Source of the DNA: Candidatus Moraniibacteriota bacterium
GTDB taxonomy: Bacteria > Patescibacteriota > Minisyncoccia > Moranbacterales > UBA1568
Length of the DNA stretch: 64,000 bases
Direction of reading: 5' to 3'
Assembly (NCBI GenBank): GCA_016699875.1
Contig: CP064989.1
Coordinates: 252,326-316,325 of the forward strand
Part shown: positions 2,560 to 27,208 of the stretch, one piece after another
How the letters are laid out: each line of letters begins with the position of its first letter
Position numbering within the stretch: the first letter of the stretch is position 1
Notes under the pieces: model-generated
Told to the model about the DNA's origin: nothing
Seen by the model: the letters and a program-made list of their open reading frames with translations, nothing else
The model's database searches: none
Program-made: the position numbers and the translations under genes

Positions 2560-3513
2560 TCACTCAGCATCTCGACCCAAAATATCCCGTGAACGGAGAT
2601 AGAAGGGAATAGCGGAGAAGCTCACGATCATCTGTATAAACCGACTCGTCACAGCAACGGCGACCGCCGCCTCGACAGAGGTGCCAAGATACCCGAAGAA
2701 TGTAGCATACGCCCACTCTTTTACGCCGATATTATTGATACTGATCGGAATATTCGAGACAATTGTCACTAAGAAAATAACACCGAGATACTCAATCACA
2801 TGCACCTCGCCACCCAGCGCCCGAAAGAGCACGAGGTTTGCAAGTCCCACACCGACAAGGTTAAACAAAAGCGACCACCCCAGCACCGGAACCGTCGTCC
2901 GACGAAACGGATAGCGCATCACTTCCCGAATCAATCGCTGCACGCGTTCCGGAAGTTTCCCTAAAAAAAAATGGGCGGATGGCATTTTCCGAAGAACCGG
3001 CAGAGCGAAATCAAACGAAAGCGAGCCAAGTATGGCGATATCCAAGAAAAGCCAGAACGGGTTTGCAAACACCAGCTTCAAATGGAATAACGAAAAAATA
3101 ATAGCAAACACCATCGCCGCCCAAATTCCCGTAAACCGATCAAAGAGCGCCGTAGAGAGTGCCGGCGACAATTTTCCGTCCCGTTTTCCAAGCCACAGCG
3201 TCCGATACGTATCGCCACCGATAGTTGAAGGAAGAAAATTATTAATAAACGTACCCGTAAGGTACGCACGAAAGAAATCTCGGTACGGGCGATCAAATCC
3301 CTTGGATCGCGCGATAGTTTGCCATTTTCTCGACGAAATTGCGATGCCCGCAAGAAGAATGCAGATGTAGAGGGAAAGAAACGGCAAATCCACTTCCGAA
3401 ATTCTCCGAACAACCTCCGCCCAGTTGATACGCCATACGAGCCACAGAACAAACCCGCTCGACACCAAGAGTTTCAAGAAAAAAGAGAGTCGTTTTCGGA
3501 GAGCTGTTTTCAT
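2560..3513 (-). CDS. Flippase-like / lysylphosphatidylglycerol-synthase-TM-like (UPF0104) polytopic membrane protein
   Basis: About 8 predicted TM helices. The sequence resembles the membrane domain family that commonly accompanies GT2 and GT4 glycosyltransferases. The start overlaps the GT4 stop by 4 nt. Confidence 0.55.
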   Translation of the reverse strand: MKTALRKRLSFFLKLLVSSGFVLWLVWRINWAEVVRRISEVDLPFLSLYICILLAGIAISSRKWQTIARSKGFDRPYRDFFRAYLTGTFINNFLPSTIGGDTYRTLWLGKRDGKLSPALSTALFDRFTGIWAAMVFAIIFSLFHLKLVFANPFWLFLDIAILGSLSFDFALPVLRKMPSAHFFLGKLPERVQRLIREVMRYPFRRTTVPVLGWSLLFNLVGVGLANLVLFRALGGEVHVIEYLGVIFLVTIVSNIPISINNIGVKEWAYATFFGYLGTSVEAAVAVAVTSRFIQMIVSFSAIPFYLRSRDILGRDAE

Positions 3514-4685
3514 GATTTTGAAGATATCGCTTCTTCGTAAGATACCCGATACGCCTTTGCCACTTCATTCCAACCCAAGCTCTCGGCACGGCGCCGACTC
3601 TCTTCACCGTATCGCTTCGCTTCATCCGAATGCGACGCAAGAAACGCAATTTTTTCAGCGATATGTTTCGAGTCGCGCATACGGACAATGCAACCGTTCA
3701 CACCGTCTTCTACCAATTCGCGTGTCCCGCCGGTATCCGTCGTAATAATCGGGAGTCCGCAGGCAAGCGCTTCAAGCACGTTATTGCTCATCCCCTCATT
3801 GAGAGAGGGTAGTACGTACACATGTGCCCGATGATAGAGCGGCACCACTTCATTGTGCGGCACCCGCCCGACAAATCGCACCCGATCAGAAAGGTCATGC
3901 TCCGCCACAAACGCCTCGAGCGACTCGCGTTCATGCCCATCGCCGGCGATATCCAAGAGAAATCGCCTCTTCTCCGAATTTTTCAACAAATGCATCGCCT
4001 CGAGCAATGACCGCAAACCCTTTCGAGGCGTGAGACGCGCAATAGCCAATACCTGAAATGGCTCGGAGACACCGTCTGAATAATTCCTCGGAACCGAGAA
4101 AAATTCCTTGATATCAACACCATTGCGCACGACCGCAATATCTCGCGACGACTCCGTAAGGAGCGCGAGTGTCCGAAGTCCCTCGCTGTTTGCGATTACC
4201 TTCGCCGCGTTCCGCCAAATAAACCGCGTCACCGGACGCAAGAAGAGGTAGAGATTCTTAAATCGCTCGCTATACCCAGGCACATCCGAACCGCGCAACG
4301 ATACGATATACGGGAGATGAAACTCCATAGAAAGCAGACGCATCACCAACCCCGATGGAACCGAAAAAAACGCATGCATACAATCGAACTGCTCCCGCTT
4401 CAAGAGCTGCCGTGAAAACATCCACGACTTCCAAGAATACGCAAGCAGATTCGCCTTCGACTGAAAATGAAGATCGCGCGCGCCATCTTTCTTCCCGACC
4501 GGGAGCCGCTCTATCTTGATATTCGGCGCCGGATATTCCGTCCGGTGAACACCGTCAACTGACGACGTCACCAGCACAATCTCCATATCCGAGAACACCG
4601 CAAACTCCCGAAGCATGTACTCCGTCGCATTCCCCGCTCCGCCTCCCAACGGCGGATACTCATAATTATGAATGAGGAGTTTCAC
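3510..4685 (-). CDS. GT4-family glycosyltransferase (GT-B fold)
   Basis: C-terminal block ...PSLNEGMSNNVLEALACGLPIITTDTGGTRELVEDGVNG matches the EX7E motif of retaining GT4 enzymes, and the N-terminus carries the Gly-rich GGGAG start. Confidence 0.8.
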   Translation of the reverse strand: MKLLIHNYEYPPLGGGAGNATEYMLREFAVFSDMEIVLVTSSVDGVHRTEYPAPNIKIERLPVGKKDGARDLHFQSKANLLAYSWKSWMFSRQLLKREQFDCMHAFFSVPSGLVMRLLSMEFHLPYIVSLRGSDVPGYSERFKNLYLFLRPVTRFIWRNAAKVIANSEGLRTLALLTESSRDIAVVRNGVDIKEFFSVPRNYSDGVSEPFQVLAIARLTPRKGLRSLLEAMHLLKNSEKRRFLLDIAGDGHERESLEAFVAEHDLSDRVRFVGRVPHNEVVPLYHRAHVYVLPSLNEGMSNNVLEALACGLPIITTDTGGTRELVEDGVNGCIVRMRDSKHIAEKIAFLASHSDEAKRYGEESRRRAESLGWNEVAKAYRVSYEEAISSKS

Positions 4686-8401: not shown

Positions 8402-8502
8402 GTTTAAATCTCCTCAGACTTCAACAACAAAACACCCTCAAGAGGGTACGCTATCAAATTTGATCAGTCAATATGTCGATTGAGTTTACAAGACATAAGC
8501 AG

Positions 8503-8539: not shown

Positions 8540-10441
8540 CTACTTCCCATCCTCCACCTCTGCGTCTTTCGGAGATTCGGGAGTGCCTTCGGTTTTCGGC
8601 GGCTCGCCCTGCCCCGGTGCGGGAGGCGTTTCCGATTCCTGCGCGGCTTTGTAGAGTTTCTCGCCGATTTTCTGTGCGGATTCGGAGACCGCCTGCGATG
8701 CCTTCCGGATCGCTTCAAGATCATCGCCATTCTTCACCTTGTTGAGCTCGGCAATCGCGTCTTCCACTGGTTTCTTTTCATCCGCCGTCACTTTGTCGCC
8801 GGCATCGCGGATCGCTTTCTCGGTTGTGTAGACGAGACTGTCCGCCATATTGCGCGCTTCGACCAGTTCCTTCTTCCGCTTGTCTTCTTCAGCATGAAGC
8901 TCAGCGTCTTTCTTCATACGCTCGACCTCCTCTTTGGACAATCCGGTTGAAGATTCGATGCGGATAGACTGCGTCTTGTTCGTCGCTTTGTCCTTCGCGG
9001 TCACCGAGAGAATACCGTTTGCATCGATATCAAATGCGACTTCGATCTGCGGCACGCCGCGTGGCGCCGGCGGAATACCATCCAAAATAAACCGCCCGAG
9101 CGATTTGTTGTCCGCCGCCGTCTCGCGCTCGCCCTGGAGTACGTGTATTTCGACCGACGGTTGACTGTCCGCCGCCGTCGAGAATACCTTTGACTGCGAA
9201 ATAGGCACGGTTGAGTTTGCATCGATGATCGGTGTCCGCATACCGCCCAAGGTTTCGATGCCCAAGGTGAGTGGCGTCACATCAAGCAGAAGCACGTCTT
9301 TCACTGACCCCTCGAGCACGCCCCCCTGGATCGCAGCACCGATCGCCACAACTTCGTCGGGGTTCACGGAGATATCCGGCTTCTTGCCGAAGAACTCTTC
9401 GACGGTCTTAAGGACAAGCGGCATGCGCGTCATACCCCCGACCATCACTACCTCATTGATATCCTTCGCGCTCATGTCAGCATCTTTGAGCGCCTGCTTC
9501 ACCGGCGCAAGCGTCGCCACCACGAGATCATGCACGAGTTCTTCGAGCTTCGCTCGCGTCAACTTCATCACCAAGTGCTTCGGTCCCGAGGCATCGCTTG
9601 TAATAAACGGCTGATTGATTTCGGTATCCTGCGCCGTCGAGAGCTCGATCTTTGCCTTCTCTGCCGACTCCTTGATGCGCTGGAGTGCCAAAGGATCTTT
9701 GGAGAGATCGATACCTTCCTGCTTTTTGAATTCGTCGAGTATCCAATGAATCACCTTCTGATCGAAGTCGTCACCGCCCAAGTGCGTGTCACCGTTCGTC
9801 GAACGCACCTCAACCGTATCCGCTGCCACTTCGAGAATAGAGATATCGAATGTTCCCCCGCCCAAGTCATACACAGCGATTTTCTCATCTTGCTTCTTGT
9901 TGAAGCCATAAGCCAAAGCTGCCGCAGTCGGTTCATTGATAATCCGCCGCACATTGAGACCCGCGATTTCTCCCGCTTCCTTCGTCGCTTTGCGCTGCGA
10001 GTCATCGAAATACGCCGGCACCGTGATAACCGCCTCGGTGATTTTTTCGCCCAAGCGATCCTCGGCATCCGCCTTCAATTTCTGCAATACCATCGCCGAG
10101 ATTTCCTGCGGCGAGTATTCTTTGCTACCCATCACCACTTTCACGCCCTCGCCCGCTTTTACGATTTTATACGGAAGCGTTTTCTTATCGCGTTCCACTT
10201 CCTCGTCATCGAAGCGTCGCCCGATGAGTCTCTTGATCGAGAAGAGCGTATTCTCCGGATTCGTCACCGCCTGTCGCTTCGCGAGAAGTCCCACAAGCCG
10301 CTCGCCTGTCTTCGACACGGCAACCATCGATGGCGTCGTGCGATTTCCCTCTTTATTTTCTACGATCGTCGGGCTTCCGCCTTCAACAAACGCCATCGCC
10401 GAATTCGTCGTCCCGAGATCGATACCAAGTATCTTTGCCAT
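8540..10441 (-). CDS. dnaK: Molecular chaperone DnaK (Hsp70)
   Basis: [26 protein letters not shown] and the full-length actin-like ATPase plus substrate-binding domain (633 aa). Confidence 0.95.
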
Positions 10442-10608: not shown

Positions 10609-11022
10609 TTACTTCACCGTGACCGCAATCTTCTTCGGCTTCATCTCTTCCGCCTTCGGCGCGGTAATCGTGAGAATACCCTTCTCATACGATGCCGCCG
10701 CCTTGTCACCTTCCACCTTCATCGGGAGGATGATAGACCGGGAGAATTCGCCGCGACTAATTTCCTTGCGGTAATAGTCTTCGCGCTTCACTTCGTGCCG
10801 CTCCTCGCTTGATCCCGAAACCGTGAGCACGTCGTTCTCAATAGTGATGTTTACCTTCTCCGAATCGATATTCGGAAGTTGAAAGTCCACGATCACATTG
10901 TCTTTGTCCTGACGGACATCTACCGCCGGAGCAAAACCGTGCGCCCACATATCCTCATCGAAGAAACGATCGATATCGCGCATCGGTGACCAATGAATAA
11001 TGCTTCGTGTCATAGTACTCAC
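10609..11022 (-). CDS. Hsp20/alpha-crystallin-family small heat-shock protein
   Basis: Alpha-crystallin domain (VDVRQDKDNVIVDFQLPNI...GILTITAPK). It sits between grpE and dnaK. Confidence 0.8.
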   Translation of the reverse strand: MSTMTRSIIHWSPMRDIDRFFDEDMWAHGFAPAVDVRQDKDNVIVDFQLPNIDSEKVNITIENDVLTVSGSSEERHEVKREDYYRKEISRGEFSRSIILPMKVEGDKAAASYEKGILTITAPKAEEMKPKKIAVTVK

Positions 11023-11068: not shown

Positions 11069-11959
11069 CTATCTCACCACTACCTTTGCCGGACGAATCA
11101 CTCTCGAGCCACTCTTGTATCCCATCTGGAGCATCTTCGCCACCTTGCCCTCTTCCGCTGATTCGCCTTCTTCTCGACTTACAGCTTCATGCACATGCGG
11201 ATCAAAGGTATCGCCTTCCTTCACTTCGAATGCCGAGATGCCATTCGTCGCAAGCGCTTCTTCGAGTTGCTTTCCGATATAGGTAATACCCGTCATCCAT
11301 GCATTCTCCTTCTCCGCTTCCGGCACATGCTGCGCTGCCATGCGAAAGTTGTCGATCACCGGAATAATATCGAGCGCAAATCGCTCCGAACTCATCGCCG
11401 ACAATTCTCTCATCCGCTCTTCCTGCCGCCGCCGATAATTCTCAAAATCCGCCGAAATCCGCTTCACATCATTCAAATATTCCCGCTCTTTGAGTCGTTC
11501 GACAGCTGCCGATATAAAATACTTTGCCATGCTGCCAAACTCATCATTCTGAGCAACTTCTTCCGCTGTCACCCATCGATACTCACTGTGTTCCGAGCTC
11601 AGCGTAATATCCTGCGAAGAAGACATTTGCACTGTATATCCGAGAGTCAACACGCGTTTCTTTCTATATTCAGCTAAGAAAACCCCAGATTGTTTCAAGC
11701 TCTCATCAACATCAAAGCCAATCTCTTCTCCAAGTTCTCGAGACAAAGAGTCTTCAAGACTTTCCGCAACATCCACCCGACCGCCGGGAAAATCCCACAC
11801 ACCGTACTTTTGAACGAAGAAACTTTCTATATCGGCAATCTTCAACATCAAGAACACTTTCTTCTCAGGATCATACACCACTATCTTTTGCGATATCTGA
11901 AAGAGTTCATGTCCTTTCTCATCTACTATAAATTTTCCATCAACAACTTTTGTTTCCAT
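11069..11959 (-). CDS. grpE: NUDIX hydrolase domain fused to nucleotide-exchange factor GrpE
   Basis: N-terminus carries a perfect NUDIX box, GRVDVAESLEDSLSRELGEEIGF (Gx5Ex7REUxEExGU). The C-terminus aligns with GrpE (DFENYRRR, IPVIDNF, FDPHVHEAV, GYKSGSRVIRPAKVVV). Both lie in one uninterrupted ORF. Start placed at METKVVD. Confidence 0.8.
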   Translation of the reverse strand: METKVVDGKFIVDEKGHELFQISQKIVVYDPEKKVFLMLKIADIESFFVQKYGVWDFPGGRVDVAESLEDSLSRELGEEIGFDVDESLKQSGVFLAEYRKKRVLTLGYTVQMSSSQDITLSSEHSEYRWVTAEEVAQNDEFGSMAKYFISAAVERLKEREYLNDVKRISADFENYRRRQEERMRELSAMSSERFALDIIPVIDNFRMAAQHVPEAEKENAWMTGITYIGKQLEEALATNGISAFEVKEGDTFDPHVHEAVSREEGESAEEGKVAKMLQMGYKSGSRVIRPAKVVVR

Positions 11960-11975: not shown

Positions 11976-12722
11976 CTAGTGCAACACAATAAACATTGCA
12001 ATCACTCCCGCCGATCCGCCCAGCATGCGCTTCATGTATTCCAAAAGAGATTTGTTCTTCGCATACTTCATGCGCTTCGGACCGATGATAGCAAGAACCC
12101 CTCGATCACCGTCGGCGTTCTGATAGGGTGATACCATCATAGCGCAGTTGGAAATTTCCTTGATCGGGTTCTCCTCGCCAATGAATATCTTGACTTCGCC
12201 GTCTTTCATCTTGGACAAAAGCGTATCGATATTCTCATCAATCGAATCGAGCGCCTCCACCAGTCGACACACTTCGTCGAGCTCCTGAAACTCCGGCTCA
12301 CCCATCAATTCCTTCATGCCGAAATCATAGAATTCGTCGCGACTCACAATACCGGACACCGCAAGACTCCCCGAAAACGCCGAGAGAAGCTTGGCAGTCG
12401 TCCGTGCCAATCGAGCGTTCCGCGCCTCAAGCACCAAGAGCTCCTTTTTCAATTCTGCTTCTTCTTCCTTTGAAAGAGCCTCGTCTTTCATCCCATGCTC
12501 GATATAAAAGCGATACCCCTTGTCGGTTGGAATACGCCCCGACGAAACATGCGGCTGATAGAGATACCCCTCTTCTTCCAAAGTCGCCATATCGCTCCGC
12601 ACCGTCGCCGACGACACCGGCAGATGAACCCGCGAGAGAAGCACTTCGGAACCGACCGGGAGTGCACTTTTCGTATAGAGTTCTACGACCGCCGAAAGAA
12701 TAGTTTTCTGTCGCTCATTCAT
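11976..12722 (-). CDS. hrcA: Heat-inducible transcription repressor HrcA (short form)
   Basis: N-terminal winged-helix region (MNERQKTILSAVVELYTKSALPVGSEVL) and position as the first gene of the hrcA-grpE-dnaK operon directly downstream of a CIRCE. Start set at the internal Met so the gene does not overlap the CIRCE. Confidence 0.75.
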   Translation of the reverse strand: MNERQKTILSAVVELYTKSALPVGSEVLLSRVHLPVSSATVRSDMATLEEEGYLYQPHVSSGRIPTDKGYRFYIEHGMKDEALSKEEEAELKKELLVLEARNARLARTTAKLLSAFSGSLAVSGIVSRDEFYDFGMKELMGEPEFQELDEVCRLVEALDSIDENIDTLLSKMKDGEVKIFIGEENPIKEISNCAMMVSPYQNADGDRGVLAIIGPKRMKYAKNKSLLEYMKRMLGGSAGVIAMFIVLH

Positions 12723-12745
12723 ACGTTTCCAGTATAAATCACAGA

Positions 12746-12772
12746 TTAGCACTCGTCAAGTATGAGTGCTAA
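12746..12772. promoter_or_regulatory. CIRCE operator (HrcA binding site), perfect consensus
   Basis: TTAGCACTC-gtcaagtat-GAGTGCTAA read directly from the sequence, immediately upstream of hrcA. Confidence 0.9.
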
Positions 12773-26849: not shown

Positions 26850-27131
26850 CTACTCCGTCACCACGGCGAGGATGTCTTCGTGTTTGACAATAGCGTATTC
26901 GGCGCCGGCTATCTTAATGTCCGTTCCGCCATAGCGGGTATAAATAACATGCTGACCCGGCTTCACCTTGATCTTGTCGCTCTCGCCAATGGCCACTACC
27001 TTTCCCTCCTTCGAGGATTTGTCAGAAGAGGCATTCTCCGGCAGATACAGTCCCGAATCGGTTTTGACTTCCGGCTTCTCAAATGCAACAAGAACATTCT
27101 CGCCAAGCGGCATCACGTTCACTTTTTTCAT
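26850..27131 (-). CDS. groS: Co-chaperonin GroES (Hsp10)
   Basis: VMPLGENVLVAFEKPEVKTDSGLYLPENA...GKVVAIGE...VKPGQHVIY is the GroES fold sequence. No groEL follows it in this window. Confidence 0.85.
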   Translation of the reverse strand: MKKVNVMPLGENVLVAFEKPEVKTDSGLYLPENASSDKSSKEGKVVAIGESDKIKVKPGQHVIYTRYGGTDIKIAGAEYAIVKHEDILAVVTE

Positions 27132-27181: not shown

Positions 27182-27208
27182 TTGGCACTTGTCAAGGAAG
27201 AGTGCTAA
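27182..27208. promoter_or_regulatory. Degenerate CIRCE-like operator upstream of groES
   Basis: TTGGCACTT-gtcaaggaa-GAGTGCTAA has 2 mismatches to the consensus left arm and the same 9-nt spacing. Its spacer starts gtcaag, like the hrcA CIRCE. Confidence 0.55.

Follow-up and report, generated by a model that had tools for sequence, protein, structure and literature searches.

The fusion gene described here belongs to a heat-shock operon of a Candidatus Moraniibacteriota bacterium, which we analysed within a window of 64 kb, the whole stretch of DNA surveyed, taken from a genome of about 1.09 Mb. Four genes lie on the minus strand: hrcA (11976..12722, 248 aa, PF01628 E = 2.5e-22), the fusion gene (11069..11959), hsp20 (10609..11013, 134 aa, PF00011 E = 1.6e-20) and dnaK (8540..10441, 633 aa, PF00012 E = 1.2e-251). 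The start of hrcA was placed at MNERQ, as in relatives, whose orthologues are also 248 aa long. Directly upstream of hrcA, the perfect inverted repeat TTAGCACTC-N9-GAGTGCTAA (12746..12772) matches the CIRCE operator without any mismatch, where shuffling the sequence 100 times gave an expectation of 0, and constitutes a putative HrcA site. It is overlapped by a σ70-like candidate promoter, TTGACG-17-TATACT (12731..12759, minus strand), which is a consensus match only (10 of 12 positions). A terminator-like hairpin followed by a T-run, a pattern match only, is found 3' of dnaK (8432..8449, minus strand). The CIRCE element at the promoter and the presence of hrcA place the operon, as judged from its sequence, in the HrcA/CIRCE regulon, in agreement with the preliminary description of this DNA, which had proposed a hrcA-grpE-hsp20-dnaK operon under control of this type. 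A second CIRCE-like site is located upstream of groES.

The second gene of the operon is the grpE of this region. Its open reading frame runs without interruption over 296 codons plus stop, and both domains of the product are encoded in the same frame: Pfam profiles assign residues 25-139 to NUDIX (PF00293, E = 4.7e-15, 56.2 bits for a cut-off of 21.1) and residues 152-295 to GrpE (PF01025, E = 1.2e-39, 136.1 bits for a cut-off of 25.8). The single-frame NUDIX-GrpE architecture and the motifs quoted in the preliminary description, a NUDIX box now located at G60-F82 and GrpE motifs including DFENYRRR at residue 171, are thus recovered in the translation. The fusion does not reach the cut-offs of the NCBIfam GrpE equivalog models (best NF010738, 114 bits versus 137); among the best 25 NCBIfam matches listed, 24 are GrpE models and all score below their own cut-offs. 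In spite of these scores, the identical NCBI protein QQS15983.1, encoded on the 1.09-Mb contig of Ca. Moraniibacteriota, bears the name GrpE. The same protein, 100% identical, is also present on an independent Logan assembly contig, which excludes a frameshift or misassembly as the origin of the fusion, a possibility raised at the outset; the intact reading frame and the sharing of the architecture by more than 100 protein clusters lead to the same conclusion. The gene is a grpE orthologue at the canonical hrcA-grpE-dnaK position, with a MutT-type NUDIX domain instead of an acidic tail. Our literature search found no paper describing a NUDIX-GrpE architecture, in agreement with the preliminary description.

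The NUDIX domain and its putative activity

The NUDIX fold covers residues 20-142 (11534..11902, minus strand) and is preceded by a 19-aa extension predicted with low confidence, in which we found no family-wide conserved motif and no conserved hydrophobic stretch resembling a pseudo-substrate. It is delineated by the Pfam match, by an AlphaFold2 model (pLDDT 91-97 over the fold, 89 for the whole fusion, with the NUDIX part spanning about residues 21-137) and by its similarity to 3GRN, a 'MutT-related' protein of M. mazei. In Foldseek searches, the NUDIX part superimposed on 3GRN with a TM-score of 0.84 and an rmsd of 2.3 Å, and more than 40 further NUDIX structures were matched; a strand of sequence LSxEHxEYxW is common to both proteins. 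The module shares the α/β/α fold and a perfect box with the small MutT-type NUDIX proteins (3GRN, E. coli MutT, NudG, NudI, YmfB, BdRppH and the NUDIX-type Ap4A hydrolases). It differs from them in that its C-terminal helix runs on into a coiled-coil stalk.

The NUDIX box (residues 60-82, 11714..11782, minus strand), identified by motif and alignment, reads GRVDVAESLEDSLSRELGEEIGF and fits the consensus GX5EX7REUXEEXGU exactly. Residues G59, G60, R74, E75, E78 and E79, together with the downstream E123, are invariant in 57 aligned fused sequences, while internal loops of the domain vary from 37 to 53 aa. Substitutions or deletion of the box were observed in only about 4 of some 80 family members. 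This invariance and the scarcity of box changes argue that the chemistry is what selection keeps. In one natural variant, P0030, the domain is retained and the box is lost, so that catalysis must be dispensable in at least one lineage. The dN/dS ratios (0.064 and 0.081 for NUDIX, 0.126 and 0.061 for the GrpE body) indicate that the module is under purifying selection, and values of 0.06-0.08 within a type led us to reject rapid diversifying selection as the source of NUDIX divergence. From these sequence features, the module is probably an active hydrolase.

The substrate was approached by comparison with characterized subfamilies. None of the curated NCBIfam NUDIX models was reached, the best scoring 47-63 bits against cut-offs of 95-245, and those of the MutT 8-oxo-dGTP diphosphatases were missed as well (TIGR00586, 34.8 bits versus 97.9; NF008044, 39.3 versus 148). 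RppH models gave 30 bits with the window module against cut-offs of 116-118. Ap4A hydrolases of the PDB were matched in sequence at E of about 5e-4 and in fold with TM-scores of 0.68-0.78. Ap4A hydrolases and RppH carry a tyrosine 16-18 residues past the NUDIX box, and ADP-ribose pyrophosphatases a proline about 16 residues past it. The window protein has Y98 16 residues past its box, a position that is not conserved in the family. ADP-ribose or ADP-sugar pyrophosphatase models of the NudE/NudF type did not match the window module, in which positions 97 and 98 are occupied by E and Y and neither of them by P; NudE was matched at E of 3e-5 to 5e-4 by 2 of 4 other modules. Neither the PDB sequence search, nor Foldseek (MutT, YmfB, GDPMH, Ap4A hydrolase and RppH were all retrieved), nor NCBIfam discriminated between subclasses, and we therefore rejected any firm assignment. 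As no subfamily model is reached and the fold search is non-discriminating, a MutT/NTP-like class is a guess that we put forward tentatively; a role towards alarmones (Ap4A and similar) is possible. Generic phage NUDIX families of PHROGs were matched too. The PADLOC model PDC-S07 matched at 3e-14, about the score of the generic Pfam NUDIX profile, and this match is thus not specific; it was the only hit in PADLOC, no defence-island context was seen in the loci read, and membership of a defence system was not retained.

Occupants of the GrpE N-terminus in related genomes

Relatives of the NUDIX module were gathered by exhaustive HMMER search, a word-indexed search with the NUDIX part alone having returned almost nothing. 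We collected at least 113 NUDIX-fused protein clusters, 9 fused to a nucleotidyltransferase (NTase) and 104 clusters of tailed GrpE. Among the matches listed, the named carriers of the fusion are Moranbacteria, Parcubacteria and Patescibacteria. In more than 100 protein clusters, an enzyme domain is concealed behind the current annotation "nucleotide exchange factor GrpE". The GrpE slot lies between hrcA and dnaK in the window and in every related locus examined. No free-standing module was found among the closest NUDIX relatives, whose top short matches are truncated fusions, and in the loci examined the module never occurs as a separate gene of the operon. Locus L003, a candidate for an ancestral two-gene state with nudix and grpE apart, was rejected as a frameshift: it lies on an error-rich contig with many split genes, and its 'GrpE' reading frame starts inside the C-terminal strands of the NUDIX domain. 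We also rejected an origin by copying of a neighbouring gene, since the free-standing 161-aa NUDIX protein encoded upstream of hrcA in L089 and L090 shares only the box with the module (29% identity over 63 aa).

Comparison of close relatives, with flanks about 95% identical, revealed that the N-terminus of GrpE is occupied by NUDIX domains of only 30-57% identity, by a plain acidic tail or by a Pol β-type nucleotidyltransferase. Between the window and L084, hrcA is 87.6% identical at the nucleotide level, the NUDIX segment is unmatched, and identity rises to 95.3% from codon ~155 through dnaK. L089 (fused) and L090 (tailed) are 94-95% identical in nucleotides on both flanks and the module alone is replaced; their DnaK proteins differ at 1 of 638 residues and their HrcA proteins at 1 of 249. 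In the unfused relatives, a 35-40-aa acidic tail extends up to the motif EEYLxDLKR. For the tailed GrpE of sister Moranbacteria (for example L090/P0088, L001/P0103 and L088/P0099), bodies are 90-96% identical and both the flanking genes and DnaK are unchanged, this low-complexity tail standing where the fusion has its NUDIX domain. P0029 provides an example of mosaicism: its GrpE body is 99% identical to that of P0017, but its NUDIX domain shares 73% identity with that of P0053, a protein with only 54% identity in the GrpE body. Trees built from module and body are likewise incongruent, and the exchange breakpoints coincide with the start of grpE and with the EYLNDLKR codons.

Chimeric assemblies were rejected as a general cause of these mosaic alleles. 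Indeed, the L084-type allele (P0025) is found on 3 contigs from 3 sequencing runs, P0036 occurs on 24 contigs, and L089 and L090, contigs of 12.6 and 42.7 kb, are collinear on both sides of the module. As the alignments show, the GrpE N-terminus has at least three interchangeable occupants in this lineage, the NUDIX module being one of them: the acidic tail, NUDIX domains of several deeply divergent types, and the Pol β-type NTase. They are swapped through recombination in the interval from the start of grpE to the conserved EYLNDLKR codons, with no change in DnaK. We are highly confident in this architecture and in the exchangeability of the N-terminal module. Since near-identical genomes with or without the module have the same DnaK, it is not integral to the nucleotide-exchange cycle.

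The NTase-GrpE proteins (L011; P0120, P0272-P0281), encoded in Moranbacteria and Patescibacteria, resemble NUDIX-GrpE in their slot, occupied in L011 by the gene at 3171-4151, in the junction motif EYLxGWKRCQADFENY and in bearing a predicted nucleotide-handling enzyme at the N-terminus. The module itself is a Pol β-type nucleotidyltransferase with a GS...DxD motif. Its fold matches TM1012 and ANT(2'')-Ia, the likeness to ANT(2'') being weak (TM-score 0.57, 13% identity), and Pfam gives a weak Aminoglyc_resit match. Whereas the NTase is joined through a linker of variable length, the NUDIX domain is joined through a near-invariant junction.

Predicted placement of the module on the GrpE stalk

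The GrpE body (11069..11449, minus strand), delineated by Pfam, fold and PDB sequence matches, is complete: it comprises the stalk segment with DFENYRRR, the helices of the four-helix bundle and the C-terminal β-domain. Its sequence matches 4ANI (1.9e-22), 1DKG (6.8e-12), 8GB3 (1.7e-11) and also 3A6M, and Foldseek retrieved 1DKG_B, 9BLS_C and 9A81. The AlphaFold2 model has helices 143-210 and 220-238 and β-strands 241-295. In this model the final helix of the NUDIX part passes without a break into the stalk helix, the whole being predicted as a single helix from 143 to 210 with a pLDDT of 90-97. The connector (residues 143-170, 11450..11533, minus strand), defined from the model and the alignments, contains the 3' recombination breakpoint, which lies near 11496 (codon ~155) and immediately precedes the EYLND codons. 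The connector is 28 aa long in 56 of 57 fused sequences, even though identity within the family falls to about 30%.

Residue ~156 of the fusion aligns with residue 53 of M. tuberculosis GrpE and residue ~160 with residue 58 of the E. coli protein. According to the model and to the alignments with 1DKG and 8GB3, the NUDIX domain sits at the distal, N-terminal tip of the long helix that forms the stalk. The first 44 residues of M. tuberculosis GrpE are disordered (PMC10803776), and in its solved complex with DnaK the N-terminal end of the stalk adjoins the substrate-binding domain (SBD), the nucleotide cleft being contacted by the β-domain at the opposite end (PMC10803776). In both E. coli and M. 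tuberculosis the N-terminal tail binds to the SBD of DnaK and stimulates the release of clients, an action on the SBD that is controlled by unfolding of the coiled coil (PMC12915176; PMC10803776). Canonical GrpE (1DKG of E. coli, 4ANI of G. kaustophilus, 8GB3 of M. tuberculosis) thus shares with the window protein the stalk with DFENYRRR, the helix bundle, the β-domain and the operon slot under CIRCE. It has a disordered, SBD-engaging tail, whereas the window protein lacks it and carries a folded NUDIX domain of ~140 aa, predicted to be rigidly attached. The acidic tail of the unfused relatives and the alignment to both structures bear out the earlier proposal that the NUDIX domain takes the place of this tail; the net charges of the two are similar, -9 for the module versus -8 for the tail. 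By this structural analogy, the module is rather likely to be positioned beside the DnaK SBD, far from the nucleotide cleft. Its optional occurrence and its predicted placement at the stalk tip therefore argue for an accessory enzyme beside the SBD, not an ADP scavenger at the cleft.

Possible functions of the fused module

Taken as a whole, the data are best explained in our view by an accessory, strain-variable NUDIX hydrolase that replaces the GrpE tail and is not obligatory for the chaperone cycle, a reading that we hold to have about an even chance of being correct. The GrpE half would work as an ordinary dimeric nucleotide-exchange factor, whose coiled-coil stalk would carry at its tip a pair of adjacent NUDIX domains, adjoining the DnaK SBD and distant from the nucleotide cleft. 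Because it is fused to grpE, the NUDIX domain would be made only upon derepression of the HrcA regulon, at a constant 1:1 stoichiometry relative to GrpE and near DnaK. It may hydrolyse an NTP-derived stress metabolite, whether a non-canonical or damaged NTP or, as in the case of Ap4A, a dinucleoside or 5'-polyphosphate, and displacement of the tail would probably weaken or replace tail-mediated client release.

The fusion could also serve co-expression only: in a streamlined genome, an ordinary housecleaning NUDIX enzyme would have been joined to a gene of the heat-shock response, its expression thereby becoming coupled to stress, with no interplay with DnaK or GrpE. The optional presence of the module between near-identical genomes with unchanged DnaK fits this equally well, and the unrelated NTase filling the same slot on a variable linker and the generic, MutT-like nature of the module, devoid of special features, also favour it. 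However, the invariant length of the junction, kept despite divergence, and its predicted folding as one rigid helix point to a geometric constraint beyond simple co-expression; the module moreover always replaces the tail exactly, has never been found as a separate gene of the operon (L003 being a frameshift) and matches the tail in charge. We regard this explanation as doubtful. The same rigid connector and net negative charge would suit a structural or regulatory cap, in which an acidic NUDIX pair substitutes for the tail and tunes client release at the SBD or melting of the coiled-coil thermosensor, perhaps in response to nucleotides, catalysis being secondary. The action of GrpE tails on the SBD under the control of coiled-coil unfolding (PMC12915176; PMC10803776) and the box-less P0030 favour such a cap, but the catalytic residues do not vary in any of the 57 aligned sequences, the extension ahead of the fold lacks a conserved hydrophobic pseudo-substrate motif and DnaK does not differ between carriers of the tail and of the NUDIX domain, which makes it unlikely.

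The preliminary description had proposed that a hydrolase carried by the exchange factor could couple local ADP or alarmone turnover to chaperone cycling; the hydrolase would then act at the exchange site, on ADP released by DnaK or on an alarmone. Both predicted activities do reside on one polypeptide, but plain ADP is not a typical NUDIX substrate and ADP-ribose-type models score worst. The proposal is not sustained either by the geometry, a helix of ~68 residues separating the NUDIX domain from the cleft-opening β-domain at the opposite end of the stalk (PMC10803776), or by the dispensability of the module alongside a near-identical DnaK (1 of 638 residues), and we hold it to be very improbable. 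In its favour, Ap4A is reported to bind DnaK: crosslinking to DnaK, GroEL and ClpB is attributed to Johnstone & Farr 1991 where that work is cited in PMC10148737. Just as improbable to us is a detoxification or conflict module, whose enzymes would counter proteotoxic agents, for instance an ANT(2'')-like NTase acting against aminoglycosides or a NUDIX domain lowering Ap4A, which potentiates killing by aminoglycosides, strain turnover then reflecting chemical or phage warfare. Polymorphism in presence and type with recombination, ANT(2'')-Ia among the best non-GrpE structural neighbours of the NTase module together with the weak Aminoglyc_resit match, and the induction of the HrcA regulon expected from misfolded proteins are consistent with it, as is a reported rise of Ap4A caused by aminoglycosides (Ji et al. 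2019, an entry of the reference list of PMC10148737). Against it stand the generic nature of the PADLOC match, dN/dS ratios without diversifying selection within a type, the lack of mobile-element or defence-island context in the loci read and the weakness of the ANT(2'') likeness. Finally, the GrpE N-terminus of Moranbacteria might be a recombination-exchangeable docking slot, from which NUDIX types or NTase beside the SBD would act on DnaK or its bound clients, for instance through the addition or removal of a modification that contains a nucleotide. This is quite unlikely in our judgement; if true, it would represent a new, strain-variable layer of Hsp70 regulation.

The unexpected result of these comparisons is the exchangeability of the module at the GrpE N-terminus. 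How the disordered tail of GrpE contributes to client release is a subject of current Hsp70 research (JBC 2026, PMC12915176; Nat Commun 2024, PMC10803776). The relatives analysed here constitute a natural allele series, with the same DnaK and GrpE body and a stalk tip formed by a tail, a NUDIX domain or a nucleotidyltransferase, so that the question of the tail becomes directly testable with proteins validated by evolution. They also offer a clear case of domain-level allelic exchange within an essential housekeeping gene of CPR bacteria. The fusion ties a predicted hydrolase of nucleotide metabolites to the heat-shock machinery, both within one protein and at the level of transcription, and thereby bears on the old observation that stress nucleotides of the Ap4A type bind DnaK, GroEL and ClpB.

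The NUDIX-GrpE gene and its operon

The minus-strand ORF 11069..11959 translates without interruption into 296 residues. Profile searches, which the preliminary description had proposed as a check, placed two Pfam domains in the same frame: NUDIX at residues 25-139 (E=4.7e-15; 56 bits, cut-off 21) and GrpE at residues 152-295 (E=1.2e-39; 136 bits, cut-off 26). The NUDIX box GRVDVAESLEDSLSRELGEEIGF (G60-F82) fits the consensus GX5EX7REUXEEXGU exactly, and in the 64-kb window this box and the GrpE motif each occur once. An identical protein is found in GenBank (QQS15983.1, from a 1.09-Mb contig of a Candidatus Moraniibacteriota MAG), named only 'nucleotide exchange factor GrpE', and a second, independently assembled contig also encodes it. 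The intact single-frame ORF and the identical independent copy confirm the fusion and led us to reject an assembly artefact. The reading of this ORF as a textbook NUDIX box joined to GrpE was thus correct.

The operon is of the CIRCE/HrcA type, as had been described. The fusion gene is preceded by hrcA (11976-12722) and adjoined on its other side by hsp20 (10609-11013), with dnaK (8540-10441) next; the four genes share the minus strand. A perfect CIRCE palindrome (12746-12772; none expected by chance) overlaps a sigma-70-like promoter identified by consensus match, and pattern matching located a terminator-like hairpin 3' of dnaK. In the window, yidD directly adjoins the CIRCE/hrcA promoter, whereas at the same position in the closest related loci (L092 2926-4031, L093 2907-3991) divergent HIT-family and cytidylyltransferase-like genes lie between yidD and hrcA. 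The HIT family takes in Ap(n)A hydrolases and nucleotide phosphoramidate hydrolases. A second CIRCE-like palindrome with 2 mismatches (27182-27208) lies about 50 bp upstream of groES (26850-27131, minus strand, 93 aa). No groEL follows groES in the window, the next ORF being a rhodanese-like gene on the opposite strand, and a strict signature-motif search of the whole 64 kb found no GroEL.

Searching 5.8 billion proteins, clustered at 90% identity, gave about 80 clusters with both Pfam domains, at identities down to 34%; all named ones belong to Moranbacteria, the Parcubacteria group or Patescibacteria. A second search from another starting point enlarged the set to 235 GrpE bodies of this neighbourhood. 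The N-termini collected comprised at least 113 NUDIX-fused clusters, 9 fusions to another domain and 104 short ordinary tails, which answers the question, raised earlier, of whether orthologous grpE genes carry the same fusion. The fused gene sat in the canonical hrcA-grpE-(hsp20)-dnaK slot at all loci examined. Separate nudix and grpE genes called on one related contig, L003 (JGI 3300056827, Ga0558118_01421), were the single apparent case of this kind and were rejected as a frameshift: the contig is rich in errors, with frameshifts splitting CorA, ApbE, DnaK and the NUDIX-GrpE gene alike, and its gene calls are no basis for assuming two separate genes. Five loci titled 'uncultured Bdellovibrionales' or 'Candidatus Fimivivens' (L004, L006, L007, L010, L037) carry a Moranbacteria-type hrcA-(NUDIX)grpE-dnaK operon. 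In the four checked (all except L037) DnaK is 73-85% identical to that of the window, and judging from these sequences the taxonomic labels of the five MAGs look doubtful.

A folded domain in place of the disordered tail

The AlphaFold2 model of the fusion, built on 57 family members (mean pLDDT 89), comprises a low-confidence extension of 19 residues, a NUDIX fold (21-137), a single continuous helix (143-210), a second helix (220-238) and a beta-domain (241-295). The extension (METKVVDGKFIxDEKGHEL, window 11903-11959) is well conserved within the window's clade of about 20 clusters, not across the wider family. In Foldseek searches the N-terminal part resembled small MutT-type NUDIX enzymes (M. 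mazei 3GRN, TM 0.84) and the C-terminal part matched the GrpE structures 1DKG, 9BLS and 9A81. HMMER aligned residue 58 of E. coli GrpE with fusion residue ~160, and residue 53 of M. tuberculosis GrpE with residue ~156. Given this alignment and the disorder of residues 1-44 in the M. tuberculosis protein (PMC10803776), the end of the NUDIX fold coincides with the start of the ordered stalk helix in canonical GrpE. Tailed GrpEs of sister lineages carry an acidic low-complexity tail of 35-40 residues up to the motif '...EEYLxDLKRxQADFENY'; the fusion has the same motif (REYLNDVKRISADFENY), but there it follows the last NUDIX helix. The alignment and these tailed relatives bear out the proposal that NUDIX stands in place of the disordered tail. 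From the helix start to the GrpE Phe, the junction measures 28 residues in 56 of the 57 sequences, unlike the NUDIX-internal loops, which range from 37 to 53 residues. Modules and replaced tails have about equal mean net charges (-9 versus -8).

Exchange of N-terminal modules

Comparing separately the N-terminal module (NUDIX, tail or nucleotidyltransferase) and the downstream GrpE body revealed strong mosaicism at the sequence level, indicating that the module is exchangeable. Between related GrpE clusters, body and module identities were 98% versus 31-36% (P0001/P0025), 99% versus 40-42% (P0017/P0029) and 99% versus 53% (P0009/P0016), and several fused proteins have bodies 90-96% identical to those of tailed proteins. 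At the DNA level, the window and the P0025 locus L084 share 87.6% identity in hrcA, then a NUDIX segment of ~470 bp without detectable match, then 95.3% identity from codon ~155 on through grpE, hsp20 and dnaK; this alternative allele was recovered from three sequencing runs, on three contigs in all. The fused locus L089 and the tailed locus L090 are collinear at 94-95% identity on both sides (upstream for more than 4 kb, downstream for 2.4 kb), and only 487 bp (NUDIX) versus 167 bp (tail) cannot be aligned. Homology ends at the stop codon right before the grpE start and restarts at the EYLNDLKR codons. The two loci encode DnaK proteins with a single difference in 638 residues and HrcA proteins with one in 249. 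Nearest neighbours are also incongruent: P0029 and P0053 share 73% identity in NUDIX and only 54% in the GrpE body, and for 45 of 226 bodies the nearest body has a different kind of N-terminus.

Both L089 (4422-4907) and L090 (3435-3920) carry, upstream of hrcA, a free-standing 161-aa NUDIX gene adjoining TfoX-, LexA- and PemK-like genes. We rejected it as kin of the fused module, the likeness being limited to the NUDIX box.

The third occupant of the slot is a domain of ~150 residues with an invariant GS...DxD signature (YGSLGL...DxD), present in about ten clusters (P0120, P0272-P0281), for instance in the hrcA-grpE slot of Ca. Moranbacteria RIFCSPHIGHO2_02_FULL_40_12b (L011 3171-4151, MFRX01000041). 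Its model (pLDDT 78) has as best non-GrpE structural neighbours the Pol-beta-type nucleotidyltransferases TM1012, aminoglycoside ANT(2'')-Ia and MenT1; public annotation again gives GrpE only.

Catalysis and possible roles of the NUDIX module

G59, G60, R74, E75, E78, E79 and the downstream E123 are invariant across the 57-sequence alignment. The deviants among the ~80 fused members are P0018, P0068 and P0074, with single substitutions, and P0030 (QQS20664.1, Ca. Moraniibacteriota, 1.05-Mb contig). The latter has lost the whole NUDIX box and has an altered downstream E-H, but the remainder of the domain is retained, as is the junction; GrpE is its sole Pfam match, and judging by the sequence this variant may be a 'cap' devoid of catalysis. 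Computed against two close relatives, dN/dS was 0.064 and 0.081 for the NUDIX part, 0.126 and 0.061 for the GrpE body and 0.07-0.08 for hsp20. The NUDIX values lie in the range of those of its neighbours; the domain is thus under purifying selection, most simply as an enzyme.

Comparisons with PDB, Foldseek and NCBIfam gave no substrate. In PDB the top relatives either lack characterisation or are NTP-type (3GRN, MutT, MutT2, NudI, BdRppH), and the fold search ranked YmfB, GDP-mannose hydrolase, Ap4A hydrolases and RppH nearly alike. No NCBIfam subfamily model came near its cut-off; ADP-ribose and CoA types scored lowest, and one distant module type leans to NudC. Among the nearer module relatives, P0131 (1157 aa) has two tandem NUDIX domains and a long C-terminal extension, and the segment after the pair resembles, in its motifs, a RelA/SpoT-type region.

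The GrpE body is complete and in housekeeping position, so ordinary nucleotide exchange on DnaK is its most likely function. In the canonical GrpE dimer the stalk helices pair, and at their tip two NUDIX domains would thus come to lie together in fixed register; the invariant junction would be explained in this way. The tails act on the DnaK substrate-binding domain: those of E. coli GrpE bind its substrate groove (PMC12915176), and deletion of the first 42 residues (ΔN42) blocks client release in M. tuberculosis (PMC10803776). The NUDIX pair should thus sit beside this domain, tens of angstroms from the nucleotide cleft, and interception of released ADP appears unlikely. ADP is not known as a typical NUDIX substrate. 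As one DnaK serves tailed and NUDIX-bearing GrpE alike, the module is an accessory. Geometry and dispensability both speak against the preliminary proposal that local ADP or alarmone turnover could be coupled to chaperone cycling, if this is placed at the exchange site. We favour a DnaK-proximal predicted hydrolase, co-induced by heat shock, and tentatively see its substrate as a stress metabolite derived from NTP. Damaged NTPs and dinucleoside or 5'-polyphosphates (Ap4A, for example) are somewhat doubtful candidates; Ap4A is reported to crosslink to DnaK, GroEL and ClpB (Johnstone & Farr 1991, as cited in PMC10148737). That tail-mediated client release is lost or replaced would be a by-product or a second role.

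Module polymorphism beside an unchanged DnaK would also suit pure co-expression of NUDIX and GrpE without interplay, which may be the case, but the rigid, length-invariant junction argues against it. If NUDIX were instead a structural or thermosensor cap with catalysis secondary, the box-less P0030 and the conserved charge would be accounted for, the invariant catalytic residues would not. The ANT(2'')-like third module and the strain-level turnover are consistent with a stress-coupled detoxification or conflict function; however, neither diversifying selection nor, in the loci read, a defence context was seen.

NUDIX and GrpE are well-known families. In the literature searched we found neither their combination, in line with the preliminary description, nor the exact tail replacement, the rigid junction or the recombinational module exchange, and a 2025 review of GrpE-like factors mentions neither Nudix nor fusions. 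In proteins publicly annotated simply as GrpE, a predicted nucleotide hydrolase domain is tied to the heat-shock machine, a tie that may prove to be simple co-expression. Above all, enzyme modules are swapped by recombination at the N-terminus of an essential co-chaperone, which provides the Hsp70 field with natural tail-swap alleles.
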